Both the position numbers and the translations under genes were made by a program. From Minisyncoccota bacterium (lineage in GTDB: Bacteria > Patescibacteriota > Minisyncoccia > UBA6257 > JAGOQP01): DNA of 64,000 nucleotides. Where the stretch lies: assembly GCA_041661795.1 (NCBI GenBank), contig JBAZTS010000002.1, positions 36,263 through 100,262 on the forward strand. Reading direction: 5' to 3'. Under the pieces are notes generated by a model that worked only from the letters and a program-made list of their open reading frames with translations, ran no database searches and was not told the DNA's origin. Below, piece by piece: positions 49,664-61,976 of this stretch (positions within the stretch are counted from its first letter, which is position 1; each line of letters starts with the position of its first letter).

Positions 49664-49698
49664 ATAAAAAGATATTTTTCTGTTAAGGGGGATGGATA

Positions 49699-49926
49699 AT
49701 GGCTAGAAGAAAACCGGCAAGATCGATAACCATAGATAGGATGACAAGGATGATTTGCGGAGTGCTGATTCCGTCAATTATCCTTCCTCGACTACAAGAG
49801 GCGGAAGACATCGCCCTTCGGACTCTGGGGGCTTTAGGAAAGTCCCAGAGTGAAGCTCGTCATCTTTTCTGGGTGGCTATTGAGACACTCGCCAAGAGTG
49901 AGCAGATTTCCAACGGCACGCAATAG
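49699..49926 (+). CDS. GC-rich 75-aa hypothetical protein (compositionally foreign island E)
   Basis: AAGGGGGA lies 6 nt upstream of the ATG. A GC-clamped terminator (aggcgcggaac-ttg-ttccgcgcct) follows. The sequence is visibly more GC-rich than its flanks. Confidence 0.45.
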   Translation: MARRKPARSITIDRMTRMICGVLIPSIILPRLQEAEDIALRTLGALGKSQSEARHLFWVAIETLAKSEQISNGTQ

Positions 49927-49975
49927 ACAGCTCTTTCCAACTATAGGCGCGGAACTTGTTCCGCGCCTTCTGCAT

Positions 49976-51127
49976 TTATATTTTTCCACTTTTTATATCT
50001 TTTCTTATCCTCTCCACGTATTTATTGAACAGGTACAAATTATGAAATGTCAAAAACTGCAAACCAGTTATTTCTTTGGACTTCATTAAATGACAAATAT
50101 AACTTCTGGTGTAATTCTTGCAAACAAAACAATCGCAACTTTTATCTAATGGCCCTAAATCTTTTAGAAAAGAGTTTTTATTTAAATCTATTTTTTCGTG
50201 TTTTGTTTTTTGTTTGCTTACAAACGCATATCCGTGCCTTGCGTAATGTGTTGGAACAATGCAATCAAAAGTATCCACTCCTTCTTTTATAATCATAGGA
50301 ATATCTTCCAAATGCCCTATTCCAAGCAAGTGTCTTGGTTTATTTTCGGGTAATTCCGATACGGTCAATTTGAGCATATCTATCATTGTTTTTTTGCTGT
50401 CGCCAAATTCTCCGCCTATGCCAAATCCTTCAAATGGCAAAGACCCGATAAACTTGGCACTCGCTATTCTTAAGTCCTTAAACTTTCCTCCCTGTGTTAT
50501 TCCGTAAAGAGCTTGCTTAGATTTTTTGGTTTCTAAACAAATCTTTGCCCACTTGTGAGTCCTTTCTAAAGATTTTTTATTATATTCATAATCGGAGATG
50601 GGGGAGGTGCATTCGTCAAAAGCCAAAATTATATCAGCTCCAAGTTTTTCCTGTATTTTTATGGATTCTTTTGGGCCAATAAAAATATTTTTTCCATCAA
50701 CTGGAGATCTAAAATAAACTCCACCATCGGTTATTCTTATATTTTTCGGTTTATGGTTTGTGGTTATTTTTTCATTAGTATTATTTTTTAAAATCTTGCC
50801 TGTTCCATAATCTCTTCCAAATCCTAAACTAAAAACTTGAAAACCGGCTGAGTCAGTTATCAACGGCTTTTTCCAATTCATAAACTTATGAAGCCCGCCA
50901 TTTTTGACTACTATATCTTCTCCCGGTTTTAAATGAAGATGGAAAGTATTAGCAATCAAAAGTTGAGCTCCGGTTTTCTCTGCTTCTTGGCTGTTTAGAG
51001 TTTTTATAGTGGCTTGAGTGGCCACCGGAACAAAAGCAGGTGTTTCTACTTCCCCGTGGGAAGTTTTTAATATTCCCAGTCGCGCGTTACTTTTTTTAGA
51101 TTTTTTTAGTATTTTAAAGTCAAACAT
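49976..51127 (-). CDS. tgt: Queuine tRNA-ribosyltransferase
   Basis: [44 protein letters not shown] and the zinc motif CDCFVC...H. Confidence 0.93.
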
Positions 51128-51146
51128 AATGTTTTATAATAATCAT

Positions 51147-51172
51147 ATACCGAATACAGTATACCGTATACC
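51147..51172. repeat. 26-nt word repeat (ataccgaatacagtataccgtatacc)
   Basis: 24/26 identical to the reverse complement of 38142-38167. Related words (cgatatacggtctacggtttacagt) recur at 51226-51250, inside the 5' end of the next gene. Confidence 0.7.
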
Positions 51173-58280: not shown

Positions 58281-61193
58281 ATGAAAAAAGAGAATCAATC
58301 AATAGAAATAATCGGGGCGCGTGTCCACAACTTAAAAAATGTGGATGTTTCTATACCTAAAAATAAATTGGTAGTTGTTTGCGGAGTTTCTGGTTCCGGA
58401 AAATCATCTTTAGCTTTTGATACTTTATACGAAGAGGGACAGAGAAGATATTTAGAAAGTTTGTCCTCTTATGTCAGACAGTTTTTAGGAGGATTTAAAA
58501 AACCAGATGTTGAAAAAATAATCGGCTTGTCTCCGACTATCGCCATCAACCAAAAAAGCGTTTCTTCCAATCCGCGTTCAACTGTGGGCACAATAACTGA
58601 AATTTACGATCATCTCCGTCTTCTCTTTGCTCGAGTTGGAATTCCTCATTGTCCAAATGACAACATTGTCATAACCGCTCAGACACCACAAGAAATCGCC
58701 AATAGAATTATTGACTTGGCTCATAACAACGAAATTGTTTTGCTGGCTCCAATAATCTCGGGGAAAAAGGGTCAGCACCAGGCGATTTTTGACGAGATTG
58801 AGAGGGGCGGATATTCACAGGTCAGGGTTGATGGGTATTTTTATCCCATTGCCGAAGCCAAAAATATTTCTCTGGATAAAAATAAAAAACACGATATCGA
58901 AGTTACCGTAGGTAAGTTTTTTACTGGAGTAAAAATAGATATCCAAAGAAATATATCCAAAATGGAAAGAGAGGCATTGAAAAACAAAAATAAAAAGATA
59001 GATAAGTTGATAAAAGAAGAAAAGTTAGAACTTTTAGAAAACATCAGAAAAGGACTGGCCATGGGGCAGGGAAATATTGTTGCTCATACCAAGGGGAAGG
59101 ATTTTTCCTTTTCCGAGAATTATTCCTGTTCTAAATGCGGATTTTCTTTACCCAAAATTGAACCCAGAACTTTTTCATTCAACAGTCCTTTTGGAGCTTG
59201 TAAAAATTGTCAGGGATTGGGAACTAAACTTGAAATAGATTTGGATTTGATAATCAACCCGGAAATCTCTTTGGAAGCGGGAGCTATAAAGCCCTGGTTT
59301 TCTTTAAGCCGTATGGGAAGAAGAGCTCTTGGCGCCAATTGGCAGAGATTTGTTACTGAGACCATTATTAGGGATTCTGGGCTGTCCCCAAGAACTCCTT
59401 TTGGAAAACTTCCCAAAGAAGTCCAGGATAAAATTTTATATGGTGATAAAGAAAATTATACTCATCTTAAAGACGGCGATTGGGAAGGAAAAACTTTATT
59501 TGAGGGAATTATTCCTCGCTTGGAGCGACTTTATTACGAAACTGAATCTGATTTTATCAGACAGGAACTTTCTAAATACATGCTTGAAAAAACCTGTCCC
59601 GTTTGTAATGGGTCGCGTTTAAGAGAAGAAGCATTGGCGGTAAGAGTGGGAGGAAAGAACATTTCTGAATTGACTTCAATGGCGGTTTTGGATTTTGTTA
59701 GTTTTTGCCAAAAACATATTTATGAAAAAATGTCGGAAAATCAAAAAACGGTTGCTGTTTCAATAATCAAAGAAATTTCCACTAAATCAAATTTTTTAAT
59801 TAACGTTGGTTTGGAATATATGAACTTGGGAAGGTCAGCGACTACTTTGTCAGTAGGAGAAAATCAAAGAATCCGCCTGGCTACCCAGTTGGGTTCTGGA
59901 TTGTCTGGAGTGATTTATGTTTTAGACGAACCGACTATTGGGCTTCATCCTCGCGACACTGACCGTCTCATAAAAACATTAAAAGAACTTAGAGATTTAA
60001 ATAATACCGTGATTGTGGTGGAACATGATGAGAGGGTTATAGAAAGCGCCGATTGGGTTATTGAAATTGGACCATTAGCCGGAGAAGAAGGTGGCAAGGT
60101 TGTTTTTGAAGGAACGCCATCAGATTTGAAAAAATCAAAAACGTTAACTGGATTATATTTTGCCGGCAAGAAAAAAGCGCAATCGGGACTTTCTAAAAAT
60201 AATTCTGAAAATAAAGAATTTATAAAACTGTATGGCGCTTCACAGTTTAATTTAAAAAACATAAATCTTTCCATTCCTTTAAAAAAATTTGTCTGTGTGG
60301 CAGGAGTTTCGGGCTCGGGTAAAAGCACGTTAATGTTAGATGTTTTTGCCAAGGCCCTTCAGAAAGAAGTTCTTAGGATGAGCGTGGCTGTAGGTGAATA
60401 TAAAAAACTTGAGGGGGAAAGAAATATAGACAAAGTGGTTATTATTGACCAAAGTCCTATCGGCAGAACCCCTCGTTCCAATCCGGCTACTTATACGGGA
60501 ATTTTTACTCCCATTAGACAATTTTTCACTCGCTTGGAAGAGTCGCAGATAAGGGGATATGGGCCATCATATTTTAGTTTCAACGTTAAGCCGGGAAGAT
60601 GTGAGGCCTGCAGAGGGGAAGGATTTAAAAAGGTGGAGATGTATTTTTTGCCGGATATGTACGTAGAGTGTGAAGTTTGTAAAGGCACCAGATTTTCTCC
60701 CGAGGTTTTGGATGTTAAATATAAAAACAAAAACATTGCTGATGTTCTTTCTATGAGCGTTAAGGAAGCGCTGGCGTTTTTTCACCAGTTTCCTTTTATT
60801 GGCGATAAGTTAAAAATTCTTGATGAAATCGGTCTTGGATATATGAAACTGGGACAGCCGGCGACAACTTTGTCGGGAGGAGAAGCTCAAAGGATAAAAC
60901 TTTCCGATGAACTTGCCAAAAGAGCTACAGGAAGGACTATTTATATTTTAGACGAACCGACTGTGGGACTTCACTTTGAAGACACAAAAAAACTTTTATA
61001 TATTTTGCGCTCGTTGGTTCTAAAAGGTAATACGGTTTTAGTTATAGAACACAATCCTGATGTTTTAAAAGAATCGGACTGGATTATTGAACTTGGTCCC
61101 GAAGGTGGAGACAAGGGAGGAAAAATAATTTTTGAGGGAACACTGGAAGAGATAAAAAAGAAAAAAACAATGACGGGGAAGTATTTAATATGA
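58281..61193 (+). CDS. uvrA: Excinuclease ABC subunit A
   Basis: Two ABC modules ([15 protein letters not shown] and [10 protein letters not shown]; LSGGEAQR signatures) plus zinc modules (CSKCGF...[14 protein letters not shown]...CEVCKG). Confidence 0.97.
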
Positions 61194-61411
61194 AGATAAT
61201 AATCATCGTAAAACCAAATAAAAAAGAAAATAAGGTTGTGAAAATAGGAGAGAACATTTTTGAAATTTATACGAATCAACCGGCTAAAGAAAATAAAGCC
61301 AATTTGGATATTATTCAACAAATGTCCAAGTATTTTAAAGTATCAAAATCAAAGGTTTCTATATCTTCCGGATTAAAGTCAAAGAAGAAAATTTTGGAAA
61401 TAAATATATAA
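61190..61411 (+). CDS. DUF167 (YggU-like) protein
   Basis: IIVKPNKKENKV...NQPAKENKANLDII...SKVSISSGLKSKKKILEI matches the DUF167 pattern. Confidence 0.8.
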   Translation: MKIIIIVKPNKKENKVVKIGENIFEIYTNQPAKENKANLDIIQQMSKYFKVSKSKVSISSGLKSKKKILEINI

Positions 61412-61941
61412 AAAAAGGGGGCTCCCGGTGTTGCTGGGAGCCCAAAGTGCGGTAAGGAGGTCAATGTACGATGCGGTGCCTGCCGTGCGTCGCTTCGCTC
61501 GTTCGGGTCTTGGTGGTTCAGATCAGGGCCAGTCGTGCCCGAAAACTTAACTTTCTGGCCCATTGCTTCTCGGCACGCATGGTTTCTCCTTGCATGGATT
61601 TTTGGTCCACGCAGCTCTGCCCTCAGCGCTTGACGGTGGCCTCGTCGTTGGTGCGGTGGTTGTTCTGACGCTGTTGCATGGGATTTCTCCTCGCGTGAAC
61701 GTCGTCGGTTGTTGGTGCTAGCTATGGCTCAAGTCAAGCTTTCTTTTCGGTGAGCTTGACGAGCAGTGCTAGCGCCTGTTCTGGGTTTCGTTTTTTATCG
61801 GTATAACCTTCACAAGGTTATACCAGGGTTTCCTTCCTGATTGGCGGTCAAGAAGGTTGTTTAATCATCCAGCATTGTCCTAACTAACGGAACGGCGGTT
61901 CGACGTCCACGTGCATCGCTTTCCTCCTTATGTAGTTTACT
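61410..61941 (-). ncRNA. GC-rich ~530-nt transcription unit (large structured RNA and/or SD-led micro-ORF cassette)
   Basis: Promoter at 61948-61976. Terminator gggctccc-agcaacac-cgggagcccc plus U7. The 5' uaaggagg...cgaugc can pair with the 3' gcaucg...ccuccuua. It contains an 11-bp GUGA-capped hairpin (ggtataacctt gtga aggttatacc). No ORF over 25 aa has a plausible start. Confidence 0.4.
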
Positions 61942-61947
61942 TATTTC

Positions 61948-61976
61948 AGGATAAAACAAAAACGGCTATTAGTCAA
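61948..61976 (-). promoter_or_regulatory. Sigma-70-type promoter TTGACT-17-TATCCT for the GC-rich unit
   Basis: The minus strand reads ttgactaatagccgtttttgttttatcct, located just after the SDR stop codon. Confidence 0.45.

Follow-up and report, generated by a model that had tools for sequence, protein, structure and literature searches.

We analysed five GC-rich blocks in a 64-kb stretch of DNA (the window) from a tiny, uncultured, AT-rich and Wolfebacteria-like bacterium of the Minisyncoccota. The window is part of the 156-kb ENA metagenome contig k141_214873 (ERZ27249449), and NCBI labels its proteins 'Candidatus Paceibacterota bacterium'. Each of the five blocks, which we call A to E, is an autonomous accessory transcription unit. 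The explanation that we favour, with a probability of about 0.5, is that the blocks belong to a minigene pool shared among related Paceibacterota, that they were acquired horizontally and that they were then kept by selection on protein and RNA.

Results

Five GC-rich blocks coincide with transcription units

The GC content of the whole window is 35.9%. A preliminary description of this DNA had reported four sharply bounded GC-rich blocks within 12 kb and a fifth at 39.33–39.92 kb. We placed the borders by maximum-likelihood two-change-point segmentation (log-likelihood gains of 18–38 nats) and recovered all five, and a 200-nt GC profile with a threshold scan picked out the same five blocks. 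Block A (49687–49973) has a GC of 0.509 with flanks of ~0.30, block B (54889–55415) 0.573 with flanks of ~0.35, block C (57406–58175) 0.512 with flanks of 0.27 and 0.36, block D (61417–61927) 0.548 with flanks of 0.29 and 0.32, and block E (39333–39912) 0.545 with flanks of ~0.35; over all five blocks, flank GC ranges from 0.27 to 0.36. Most edges differ from the earlier coordinates by no more than a few bases, and the greatest difference (~25 nt) is at the right edge of C. No other segment longer than 300 bp has block-like GC in the 64 kb, except the segment of the RNase P RNA (22068–22466), and no further GC island was found in the 7 kb past the window (L001).

Pfam and the source annotations gave the gene order around the blocks. 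Block E lies between dnaX (− strand) and scpA, which is followed by scpB. Blocks A and B lie in the order HAD hydrolase, rsmI, [A], tgt (−), a gene for a 495-aa pilin-like protein, uvrB (−), [B], uvrC (−). The order then continues with a 186-aa PaaX/Cas2-like gene (−), [C], uvrA, DUF167, [D], SDR (−), rmuC, groES and groEL. This host array (rsmI / tgt-uvrB-uvrC-uvrA-DUF167-SDR-rmuC-groES/EL, and dnaX/scpA) is housekeeping and conserved in Paceibacterota. The known RNAs of the window are the RNase P RNA (22072–22430) and two tRNAs.

A promoter-like site lies just upstream of every block, on the strand that bears its open reading frames (ORFs) or its terminator. Block A has TTGACT-17-TATTTT (49650–49678, +), with the −35 box inside the last codons of the host gene rsmI. 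Thus, at least the promoter of A was not imported, and its position fits the use of a host promoter slot. The sites of the other blocks are TTGACT-17-TATACT with an extended −10 TG for B (54843–54871, +), TTGACT-17-TATCCT for D (61948–61976, −) and TTGACA-16-TATAAT, a 12/12 match to the consensus, for E (39930–39957, −). For C, we read by eye a site that the automatic scan did not call (58219–58245, −); it has TATAAT at 58224–58219 and a weak −35 box, TGGACA, with a 15-nt spacer.

Each block also ends at a GC hairpin terminator. That of A (49945–49968, +) has the same stem in a diverged strain (L083, see below), where the loop differs. The intrinsic terminator of B (55387–55420, +) consists of a hairpin (55387–55410) with a 10-bp stem, including 8 GC pairs, and a T-run. 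Those of C (57410–57430, −; GGACCGC...GCGGTCC), D (61417–61443, −, then a T-run) and E (39333–39366, −, then a T-run) were read from the sequence. The preliminary description had placed an AT-rich, host-like promoter or gene end before and a GC hairpin terminator after every block, and had equated the composition border with the transcript border. Both statements hold for all five blocks, the promoter of C being the least clear: the change points fall ~5–40 nt from the predicted promoter start or terminator in 5/5 blocks. The transcripts are predicted to start at about 49685 (+) in A, 54878 (+) in B, 58212 (−) in C, 61941 (−) in D and 39923 (−) in E.

Strong Shine-Dalgarno sites set the block genes apart from most core genes

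Blocks A, B and C contain six ORFs, of 75, 132, 91, 81, 43 and 50 aa, none with a known family. Their Shine-Dalgarno (SD) sites form anti-SD duplexes of −9.2 to −15.8 kcal/mol, versus a median of −0.5 for 58 long ORFs. At the first start, 2 of 57 core ORFs reach −7.5 kcal/mol, and at most 10 of 57 do so when the most favourable start among the first 40 codons is counted, confirming that most core genes start without an SD. The contrast between block and core ORFs is significant under both countings (Fisher p from 4e-7 to 1e-4). An AGGAGG-type SD had been claimed before each ORF and micro-ORF of the blocks. This is correct for the six ORFs of A–C; in D and E, SDs precede only micro-ORFs of 10–20 aa or frames without a coding signature, and in E the SD ahead of the + strand ORF forms one arm of a palindromic hairpin.

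A TATAAT-like or −10 box stands a few bases ahead of the ATG in several core genes (for example 56685–57245, 49976–51127 and 46956–47384). Such starts suggest that leaderless or SD-independent initiation is widespread in the host.

The blocks are genuine parts of the genome

Sharp switches in composition may also arise when an assembly joins reads from different organisms. We consider it extremely improbable that the blocks are assembly chimeras or contaminant reads from GC-richer organisms. The same DNA and proteins occur in ENA, JGI, NCBI (two metagenome-assembled genomes, MAGs) and Logan assemblies, so the identical sequence was obtained by different assemblers from different sources. L083, a 568-bp contig from the same sample, belongs to a diverged strain (roughly 87–90% identical) in which the same two genes flank block A; the contig is 87% identical to the window in block A (~13% diverged) and 81–94% identical in the flanks. 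Host-type promoters and terminators also surround every block. The preliminary description had named two outcomes that would overturn it. One was a chimeric contig, and separate assemblies agree on the sequence, with block A at the same site in the diverged strain. The other was a known housekeeping RNA or protein, and Rfam and protein family searches came back empty.

Blocks A, B and C encode small proteins with foreign-looking codons

The sole ORF of block A, A75 (49699–49926, +; SD AAGGGGGA), specifies a soluble 75-aa protein with three predicted helices. We compared A75 with its counterpart in L083 and found 15.5 synonymous and 5.5 non-synonymous differences, which correspond to a dS (synonymous divergence) of 0.37, a dN (non-synonymous divergence) of 0.033 and a dN/dS of 0.089. 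In the other two frames of the block, the equivalent ratios are 1.5–1.8. Because the low ratio is confined to the A75 frame, A75 is, on this sequence comparison, a genuine gene under purifying selection. AlphaFold2 predicted three helices (pLDDT confidence score 71). Foldseek found nothing significant with this model (best E = 5), and a sequence search of the PDB gave only a weak likeness to the ClpC N-terminal domain (E 0.11).

Four of the six proteins are predicted membrane proteins with one to four membrane helices. B132 (54963–55361, +), of 132 aa, is predicted to be a membrane protein with four helices, and its ORF follows a GC-rich 5′ untranslated region (UTR) of ~85 nt; the prediction comes from hydropathy and a low-confidence AlphaFold2 model (pLDDT 61). 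The four genes of block C form a compact minus-strand operon: C91, C81, C43 and C50 overlap or abut, and three of the products are hydrophobic. C91 (57918–58193, −; 91 aa, SD GAGGAGGA) and C81 (57704–57949, −; 81 aa) share a 32-nt overlap and each have two hydrophobic segments; C81 has an acidic tail that ends in PGAIA. C43 (57558–57689, −) is a putative ORF of 43 aa with an SD and is not hydrophobic. C50 (57418–57570, −; 50 aa) is hydrophobic and has the strongest SD of all (−15.8 kcal/mol). None of the block proteins matched Pfam, PHROGs, PADLOC or NCBIfam. We infer an envelope or membrane function.

GC at the first, second and third codon positions (GC1/2/3) is 0.53/0.44/0.74 in B132 and 0.61/0.39/0.71 in C50, and the pattern GC3 > GC1 > GC2 is found in B132, C50 and C81. 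The GC3 of block genes thus reaches 0.74, versus ~0.30 in the host. The codon choices differ accordingly: CTC+CTG make up 63% of Leu codons in the cassettes versus 10% in core genes, ATC 65% versus 11% of Ile codons, TTC 73% versus 12% of Phe codons and AAG 57% versus 22% of Lys codons. The relative synonymous codon usage of block genes correlates at −0.12 with that of the host core, at 0.48 with that of GC-rich cassettes from other genomes and at 0.32 with that of a Paceibacterota relative of 56% GC. We considered expression-linked codon bias as the cause and rejected it, because the highly expressed groEL and groES genes keep a host-like GC3 of 0.28–0.34. A rule-based scan for cassette-like ORFs returned 5 in the 64-kb window; across 1.21 Mb of further AT-rich loci it returned 15, most of which were spurious.

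The blocks are patchily distributed among relatives

The nearest UvrC homologues are only 54–56% identical to that of the window, and a scan of metagenome contigs with UvrC recovered relatives of ≤46% identity only. We compared the uvrC-uvrB junction across three relatives (L003, L164 and L166; the UvrA of L003 is 72% identical). The gap between the two genes is ~28–100 bp in these genomes versus 850 bp in the window, where block B occupies it on the opposite strand. Block B is thus absent from this junction in all three.

L164 (an 806-kb contig, JGI 3300038986) has the order uvrA/uvrC-uvrB-tgt, a UvrC of 54% identity and a GC content of 56%. Composition therefore varies widely in the lineage, and a GC-rich donor pool within the lineage is plausible.

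A Candidatus Wolfebacteria genome of 41% GC (GCA_000994475.1, loci L168–L171) shares core genes with the window at 67–75% nucleotide identity. The interval from rsmI to SDR measures 12.3 kb in the window (49664–61991), where it holds tgt, the pilin-like gene, uvrB, uvrC, uvrA, DUF167 and four blocks. In L171 it measures 2 kb (5465–7452) and contains, besides W83, an Exo_endo_phos gene and a gene for 235 aa. The difference amounts to an extensive rearrangement or a replacement whose limits are exactly the borders of the four-block region. In L166 and L003, the uvr genes stand beside rmuC-groES/EL; judging from this gene order, the uvr cluster at rmuC-groES/EL is therefore probably ancestral and the Wolfebacteria order derived.

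These relatives carry cassettes of their own. W83 encodes 83 aa with two hydrophobic segments, has a GC of 0.56 and a GC3 of 0.74 (versus 0.33–0.45 for its neighbours) and possesses its own promoter, an SD (AAAGGAGAG) and a GC hairpin terminator. It lies directly downstream of the SDR gene, in the same slot and on the same strand as block D. In L166, a 152-aa gene between uvrA and DUF167 has a GC3 of 0.84, versus 0.43 for its host, with an SD and a terminator. A GC-rich gene for a 670-aa secreted or surface protein with long Pro/Thr linkers (CLIPPER domain) also lies between uvrA and uvrC in L166 (7905–9917). Since it occupies the slot of the window's PaaX-like gene and block C, this slot appears to be a recurrent site of accessory-gene turnover. 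GC islands elsewhere in the fetched loci were set aside, being mostly rRNA, tRNA or parts of long genes. An unannotated stretch of ~200 nt in L171 (16340–16535, GC 0.52), just upstream of an apparent tRNA gene recognised by eye, is a candidate small RNA.

Block proteins are near-orphans

While the neighbouring core proteins have thousands of relatives, the block proteins appear to be near-orphans, judging from the family searches and, for B132, from searches of large protein libraries. A word-indexed search of a library of 5.8 billion clusters with B132 found only B132 itself. When 1.84 billion representatives were searched exhaustively with HMMER, a single relative aligned over the full length, P0132 (131 aa), with 29% identity and a whole-library E of 4e-6. 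The P0132 gene (L167) is itself a GC-rich unit (0.50–0.64, GC3 0.67) with an SD and a GC hairpin, on an AT-rich contig (0.18–0.45) that also carries a DUF5663 gene.

We also compared block C proteins with W83. C91 and W83 gave a Smith-Waterman score of 57, versus 24.6 ± 4.6 for shuffled sequences, at 24% identity; the score remained distinct when residues were shuffled within 6-residue windows (p 0.004). C81 and W83 end in the same PGAIA-stop, with 18/20 identical nucleotides. A relationship of C91/C81 to W83 is thus probable from their sequences, though not proven. Scans of IMG/VR with a B132/P0132 profile, C91 and C81 found no relatives, and searches of phage and plasmid DNA with all blocks found no match.

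Atypical composition and codon usage are thus combined with patchy presence among relatives, as expected of horizontally acquired genes. A donor lineage or an incongruent phylogeny, the other expected sign, was not found, P0132 being the only relative recovered for B132.

Block transcripts are predicted to be more structured than expected

We calculated fold z-scores against dinucleotide shuffles. The scores are −3.2 for block A, −4.2 to −4.4 for B and −4.1 for C; D scores −6.05 on the − strand and −4.2 on the + strand, and E −4.1 on the − strand and −6.8 on the + strand. For comparison, the RNase P RNA scores −5.2, a segment of uvrA −0.3 and a segment of uvrB +0.4. The coding sequences (CDSs) by themselves also fold well (A −2.9, B −2.8, C −3.5), as do those of P0132 (−2.4) and of the 152-aa gene of L166 (−3.3), whereas four core-gene segments of the 56% GC relative range from −1.4 to +1.0. 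In a 300-nt sliding scan, windows in blocks have a mean z of −1.61 versus −0.43 elsewhere (Mann-Whitney p = 3.6e-4).

For block A, the L083 strain allowed a test of whether structure is preserved: we relocated its substitutions to sites of the same base and codon position. The observed substitutions give a threaded energy of −87.8 versus −66.9 ± 7.6 under this null (p ~0.002), and they break 7 pairs where 12.7 are expected (p ~0.004). RNAalifold reported three compensatory pairs in block A, which are uninformative alone because two sequences were aligned and the structure came from the same alignment.

Blocks D and E may be structured RNAs or remnants of cassettes

The block D unit (61417–61941, −, ~520 nt) contains no credible ORF, only SD-led micro-ORFs of 10, 18 and 20 aa. 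Nor does the block E unit (39333–39923, −, ~590 nt), whose longest ORFs have flat GC1/2/3. We asked whether stop-codon reassignment could rescue a long ORF in either block, but no frame opened in a three-frame reading. Rfam searches with D and E alone at E ≤ 10 returned nothing or noise of ≤15 bits. In the predicted fold of D, the 5′ SD region (AAGGAGG) pairs with a 3′ CCUCCUUA stretch, so that the first SD would be masked. Block E contains a GCCUCC-UAAA-GGAGGC hairpin.

With no coding potential and with a promoter and terminator of their own, D and E have two of the properties expected of noncoding RNA (ncRNA) genes, the support for structure being single-sequence z-scores. They may be functional structured RNAs or decayed cassettes. 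Decay would mean that they once coded for proteins as A–C do and still keep promoter, SD sites and terminator, a tentative possibility in our view. They match the coding blocks in size, composition, SD-bearing micro-ORFs and architecture, D sits in the slot where the Wolfebacteria relative keeps an intact W83 cassette, and a + strand frame of D has a GC3 of 0.73. Against decay, the D block and the W83 cassette share no similarity, and no residual similarity of either block to W83, C91 or C81 was found in any frame; the promoter of E is a perfect consensus and both terminators are strong; and the fold z-scores of D (− strand) and E (+ strand) are the most negative of the five blocks.

Some blocks, especially C50, C43 and block D, could also be modules like type I toxin-antitoxin loci, with a hydrophobic peptide, a folded mRNA, a masked ribosome-binding site and antisense control. 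The small hydrophobic proteins without families, the very strong SDs, the individual promoters and terminators, the intergenic location and the predicted pairings in D (AAGGAGG with CCUCCUUA) and E (the GCCUCC-UAAA-GGAGGC hairpin) would all fit. Most products are larger than typical type I toxins, with 75–132 aa and two to four predicted membrane helices: within the usual toxin size (≤60 aa, hydrophobic) falls C50 (50 aa, hydrophobic), while C43 (43 aa) is not hydrophobic and the rest have 75–132 aa. The promoter scan showed no convincing antisense promoter, and the blocks have neither repeated copies nor a PADLOC, Pfam or Rfam match. We therefore regard a toxin-antitoxin system as very unlikely.

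The blocks lack mobility genes and known RNA families

As the preliminary description had stated, no integrase, transposase or flanking direct repeat accompanies the blocks. Pfam searches of called genes and long ORFs over 38–71 kb found no integrase, transposase or reverse transcriptase, all the assignments being housekeeping, and a search of the borders for flanking direct repeats and terminal inverted repeats found only short repeats at chance level. The tRNA genes, at 19.4 and 27.8 kb, are far from the blocks. The blocks share no sequence with each other or with the rest of the window, as copies of miniature inverted-repeat elements or insertion sequences would. Rfam 15 (tmRNA, SRP, 6S, OLE, GOLLD, ROOL, HEARO, riboswitches and others) gave no match in 39–62.2 kb at the gathering score or at E ≤ 1.

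Other features of the window

A 36-bp perfect palindrome (CCATTACAWTTAGAACGATCGTTCTAAWTGTAATGG) occurs three times, at 55670–55705, 56646–56681 and 57271–57306, where chance predicts zero copies. The uvrC CDS contains one of them, another directly follows the stop codon of the gene for the 186-aa PaaX/Cas2-like protein, and the third overlaps the promoter of that gene. The palindromes are probably operator sites of the PaaX/Cas2-like regulator, or else they bound a small module that was inserted here. In relatives, uvrC and uvrA are adjacent, without the 186-aa gene. Its product (56685–57245, −) is annotated as Cas2 by NCBI and as PaaX by JGI; it matches PaaX_M, and the match to the Cas2 model covers residues 115–154 only (TIGR01573, 27.4 bits; cutoff 24.5). 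No CRISPR array or other cas gene was found near it.

A 7-bp tandem repeat (AAGTATA, ~4.5 copies, 39279–39310) lies between the terminator of block E and the start of dnaX and overlaps TATACT promoter-like boxes. The dnaX protein is recorded as partial in the second MAG of the same population, so a contig of that MAG may end near this repeat. The most negative fold z-score of the window (−9.3) was found at 10201–10500. This region (10277–10362 and 10390–10451) contains a very small lysine-rich ORF (MAKKKAAKKGKKVAKKAKKSKKSKKSKR) with two strong hairpins downstream.

Discussion

Origin and maintenance of the blocks

The preliminary description had offered two alternatives, capture of foreign cargo and selection for RNA structure. 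Each finds partial support. Foreign cargo is supported by the codon usage (r −0.12 with the host, 0.48 with other cassettes), by the absence of B from three relatives and by the promoter slot of A; the use of SDs and the near-orphan proteins also fit transfer. Selection on RNA is supported by the blocks and their CDSs, which fold better than shuffled sequences when core and GC-matched genes do not, and by the preserved structure of A. From codon usage and distribution, we infer a horizontal origin of the blocks, and we propose that both processes have acted in turn.

Under this proposal, every unit would have an AT-rich promoter of the sigma-70 type at its start and a GC hairpin terminator of its own at its end. 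The small proteins of A–C would be translated from strong SDs in a host that mostly initiates without one. Their source would be a pool of genes that is GC-richer, uses SDs and circulates among AT-rich Paceibacterota related to the host. Horizontal transfer would have brought the units in, and illegitimate insertion would have placed them between genes without a dedicated recombinase. Vertical inheritance would have followed, under selection on the protein and on the transcript fold; we propose that this selection is why the composition has not relaxed to that of the host.

Alternatively, the blocks could be native, long-resident genes and RNAs that were never transferred, and the GC-richness of their synonymous sites and UTRs could be held purely by selection for stable, structured transcripts. 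They could then be long-lived mRNAs or dual-function RNAs. Such an origin would explain why composition edges match transcript ends in 5/5 blocks, why cassette CDSs fold better than expected in four genomes when GC-matched core genes do not, and why the predicted structure of A is preserved between strains. It would also explain why both B132/P0132, at 29% identity, and C91/C81 with W83 are GC-rich in different AT-rich hosts, and why an exhaustive search uncovered no donor lineage. It accounts poorly for the absence of block B from the uvrC-uvrB junction of three relatives, for near-orphan proteins among core proteins that have thousands of relatives, for a codon usage that resembles that of the GC-rich relative and for a structure excess that is moderate rather than extreme in the sliding scan. 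On balance, a purely native origin seems doubtful.

Several observations weigh against acquisition from a shared pool followed by selection, or against parts of it. The donor lineage was not found, and the sole relative of B132 also lies in an AT-rich context. Block edges at transcript ends in 5/5 blocks are not what random DNA capture would predict. If C91/C81 and W83 have been orthologous since the species split, the GC3 that they kept favours selection over recent transfer; the similarity of C91 to W83 is weak, being significant against shuffled sequences and not at database scale. The coding status of C43, C91, C81, C50 and B132 is judged from composition and SD sites alone. D and E have no homologues, and covariation lends no support to their reading as functional RNAs. 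Finally, the blocks are not the top outliers of the sliding scan, in which palindromes elsewhere score lower; the structure excess is therefore real but moderate.

Possible significance

Bacteria of the Candidate Phyla Radiation (CPR) have very small genomes, and small surface proteins that are still uncharacterised are believed to account for much of their biology. In an AT-rich and SD-poor host, the combination of a GC-rich transcript, a strong SD and a dedicated terminator would provide a simple signature with which to list accessory small-protein genes and candidate RNAs across the CPR. A bolder proposal is that AT-rich, SD-poor Paceibacterota possess a distinct class of 'minigene' transcripts that are GC-rich from start to terminator, depend on an SD and are selected for both RNA fold and protein. 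We consider this unlikely. If it were true, the class would encode small envelope proteins or act as RNA, and D and E would be new large structured RNAs. The composition would then be held by selection at the RNA level, for example for extreme stability or a second RNA function, and would not be a fading trace of transfer. Selection on RNA of this kind would be an unusual, transcript-wide structural constraint on bacterial mRNAs, in addition to two new large RNAs. If only transfer has acted, the finding is ordinary, but it still marks the uvr neighbourhood as a variable zone in the lineage.

Comparison with known systems

A limited literature search found nothing relevant on the combination of GC-rich, SD-led cassettes in CPR bacteria. 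The preliminary description had been unable to assign the blocks to a described element type, which was too strong a statement: unannotated small genes, small ORFs and structured ncRNAs are known to turn up in the GC-rich islands between genes of AT-rich genomes (PMC6429828). Such GC-rich intergenic regions (GC-IGRs) of AT-rich bacterial genomes have been mined for structured ncRNAs (Stav et al. 2019, PMC6429828). About one third proved to be unannotated protein genes and about one quarter upstream or small ORFs, and about a dozen more were candidate structured RNAs (PMC6429828). The blocks are likewise long GC-rich intergenic stretches in an AT-rich genome; A–C fit the small-gene class and D and E the candidate-RNA class. 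They differ in that the coding blocks have foreign-looking codons, strong SDs in an SD-poor host and an excess of structure in the CDS. D and E, moreover, are without homologues and so fall short of the covariation standard of the GC-IGR approach.

Genomic islets of deviant composition are routinely taken as a sign of gene transfer. The blocks resemble horizontally acquired islets, or ORFan genes without mobility genes, in their deviant composition, their restriction to a lineage, their position at junctions of conserved synteny and their variability among relatives. Unlike these, they are GC-richer rather than AT-richer than the host, and no donor was found. In addition, the edges of the window's blocks are transcript ends, and the contrast in composition is kept in distant homologues of other AT-rich hosts.

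With type I toxin-antitoxin loci (hok/sok, aapA/isoA, fst), the blocks share small hydrophobic peptides, an individual promoter and terminator, a strongly folded mRNA and, in D, predicted masking of an SD. The products of the window are mostly larger multi-helix membrane proteins, and no antisense RNA, repeats or family match were detected. Integron cassettes, too, are short units of a single gene that lie close to a promoter and end in a sequence able to form a hairpin. The hairpins of the window are simple GC stems followed by T-runs, and its cassettes are scattered among housekeeping genes rather than arrayed. No intI gene is present in 38–71 kb, and no attC core sites were seen by eye, block A being the one hairpin compared with the consensus. 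Taken together, these comparisons place the five blocks among lineage-specific accessory genes: they are modestly unusual and do not represent a new kind of genetic element.

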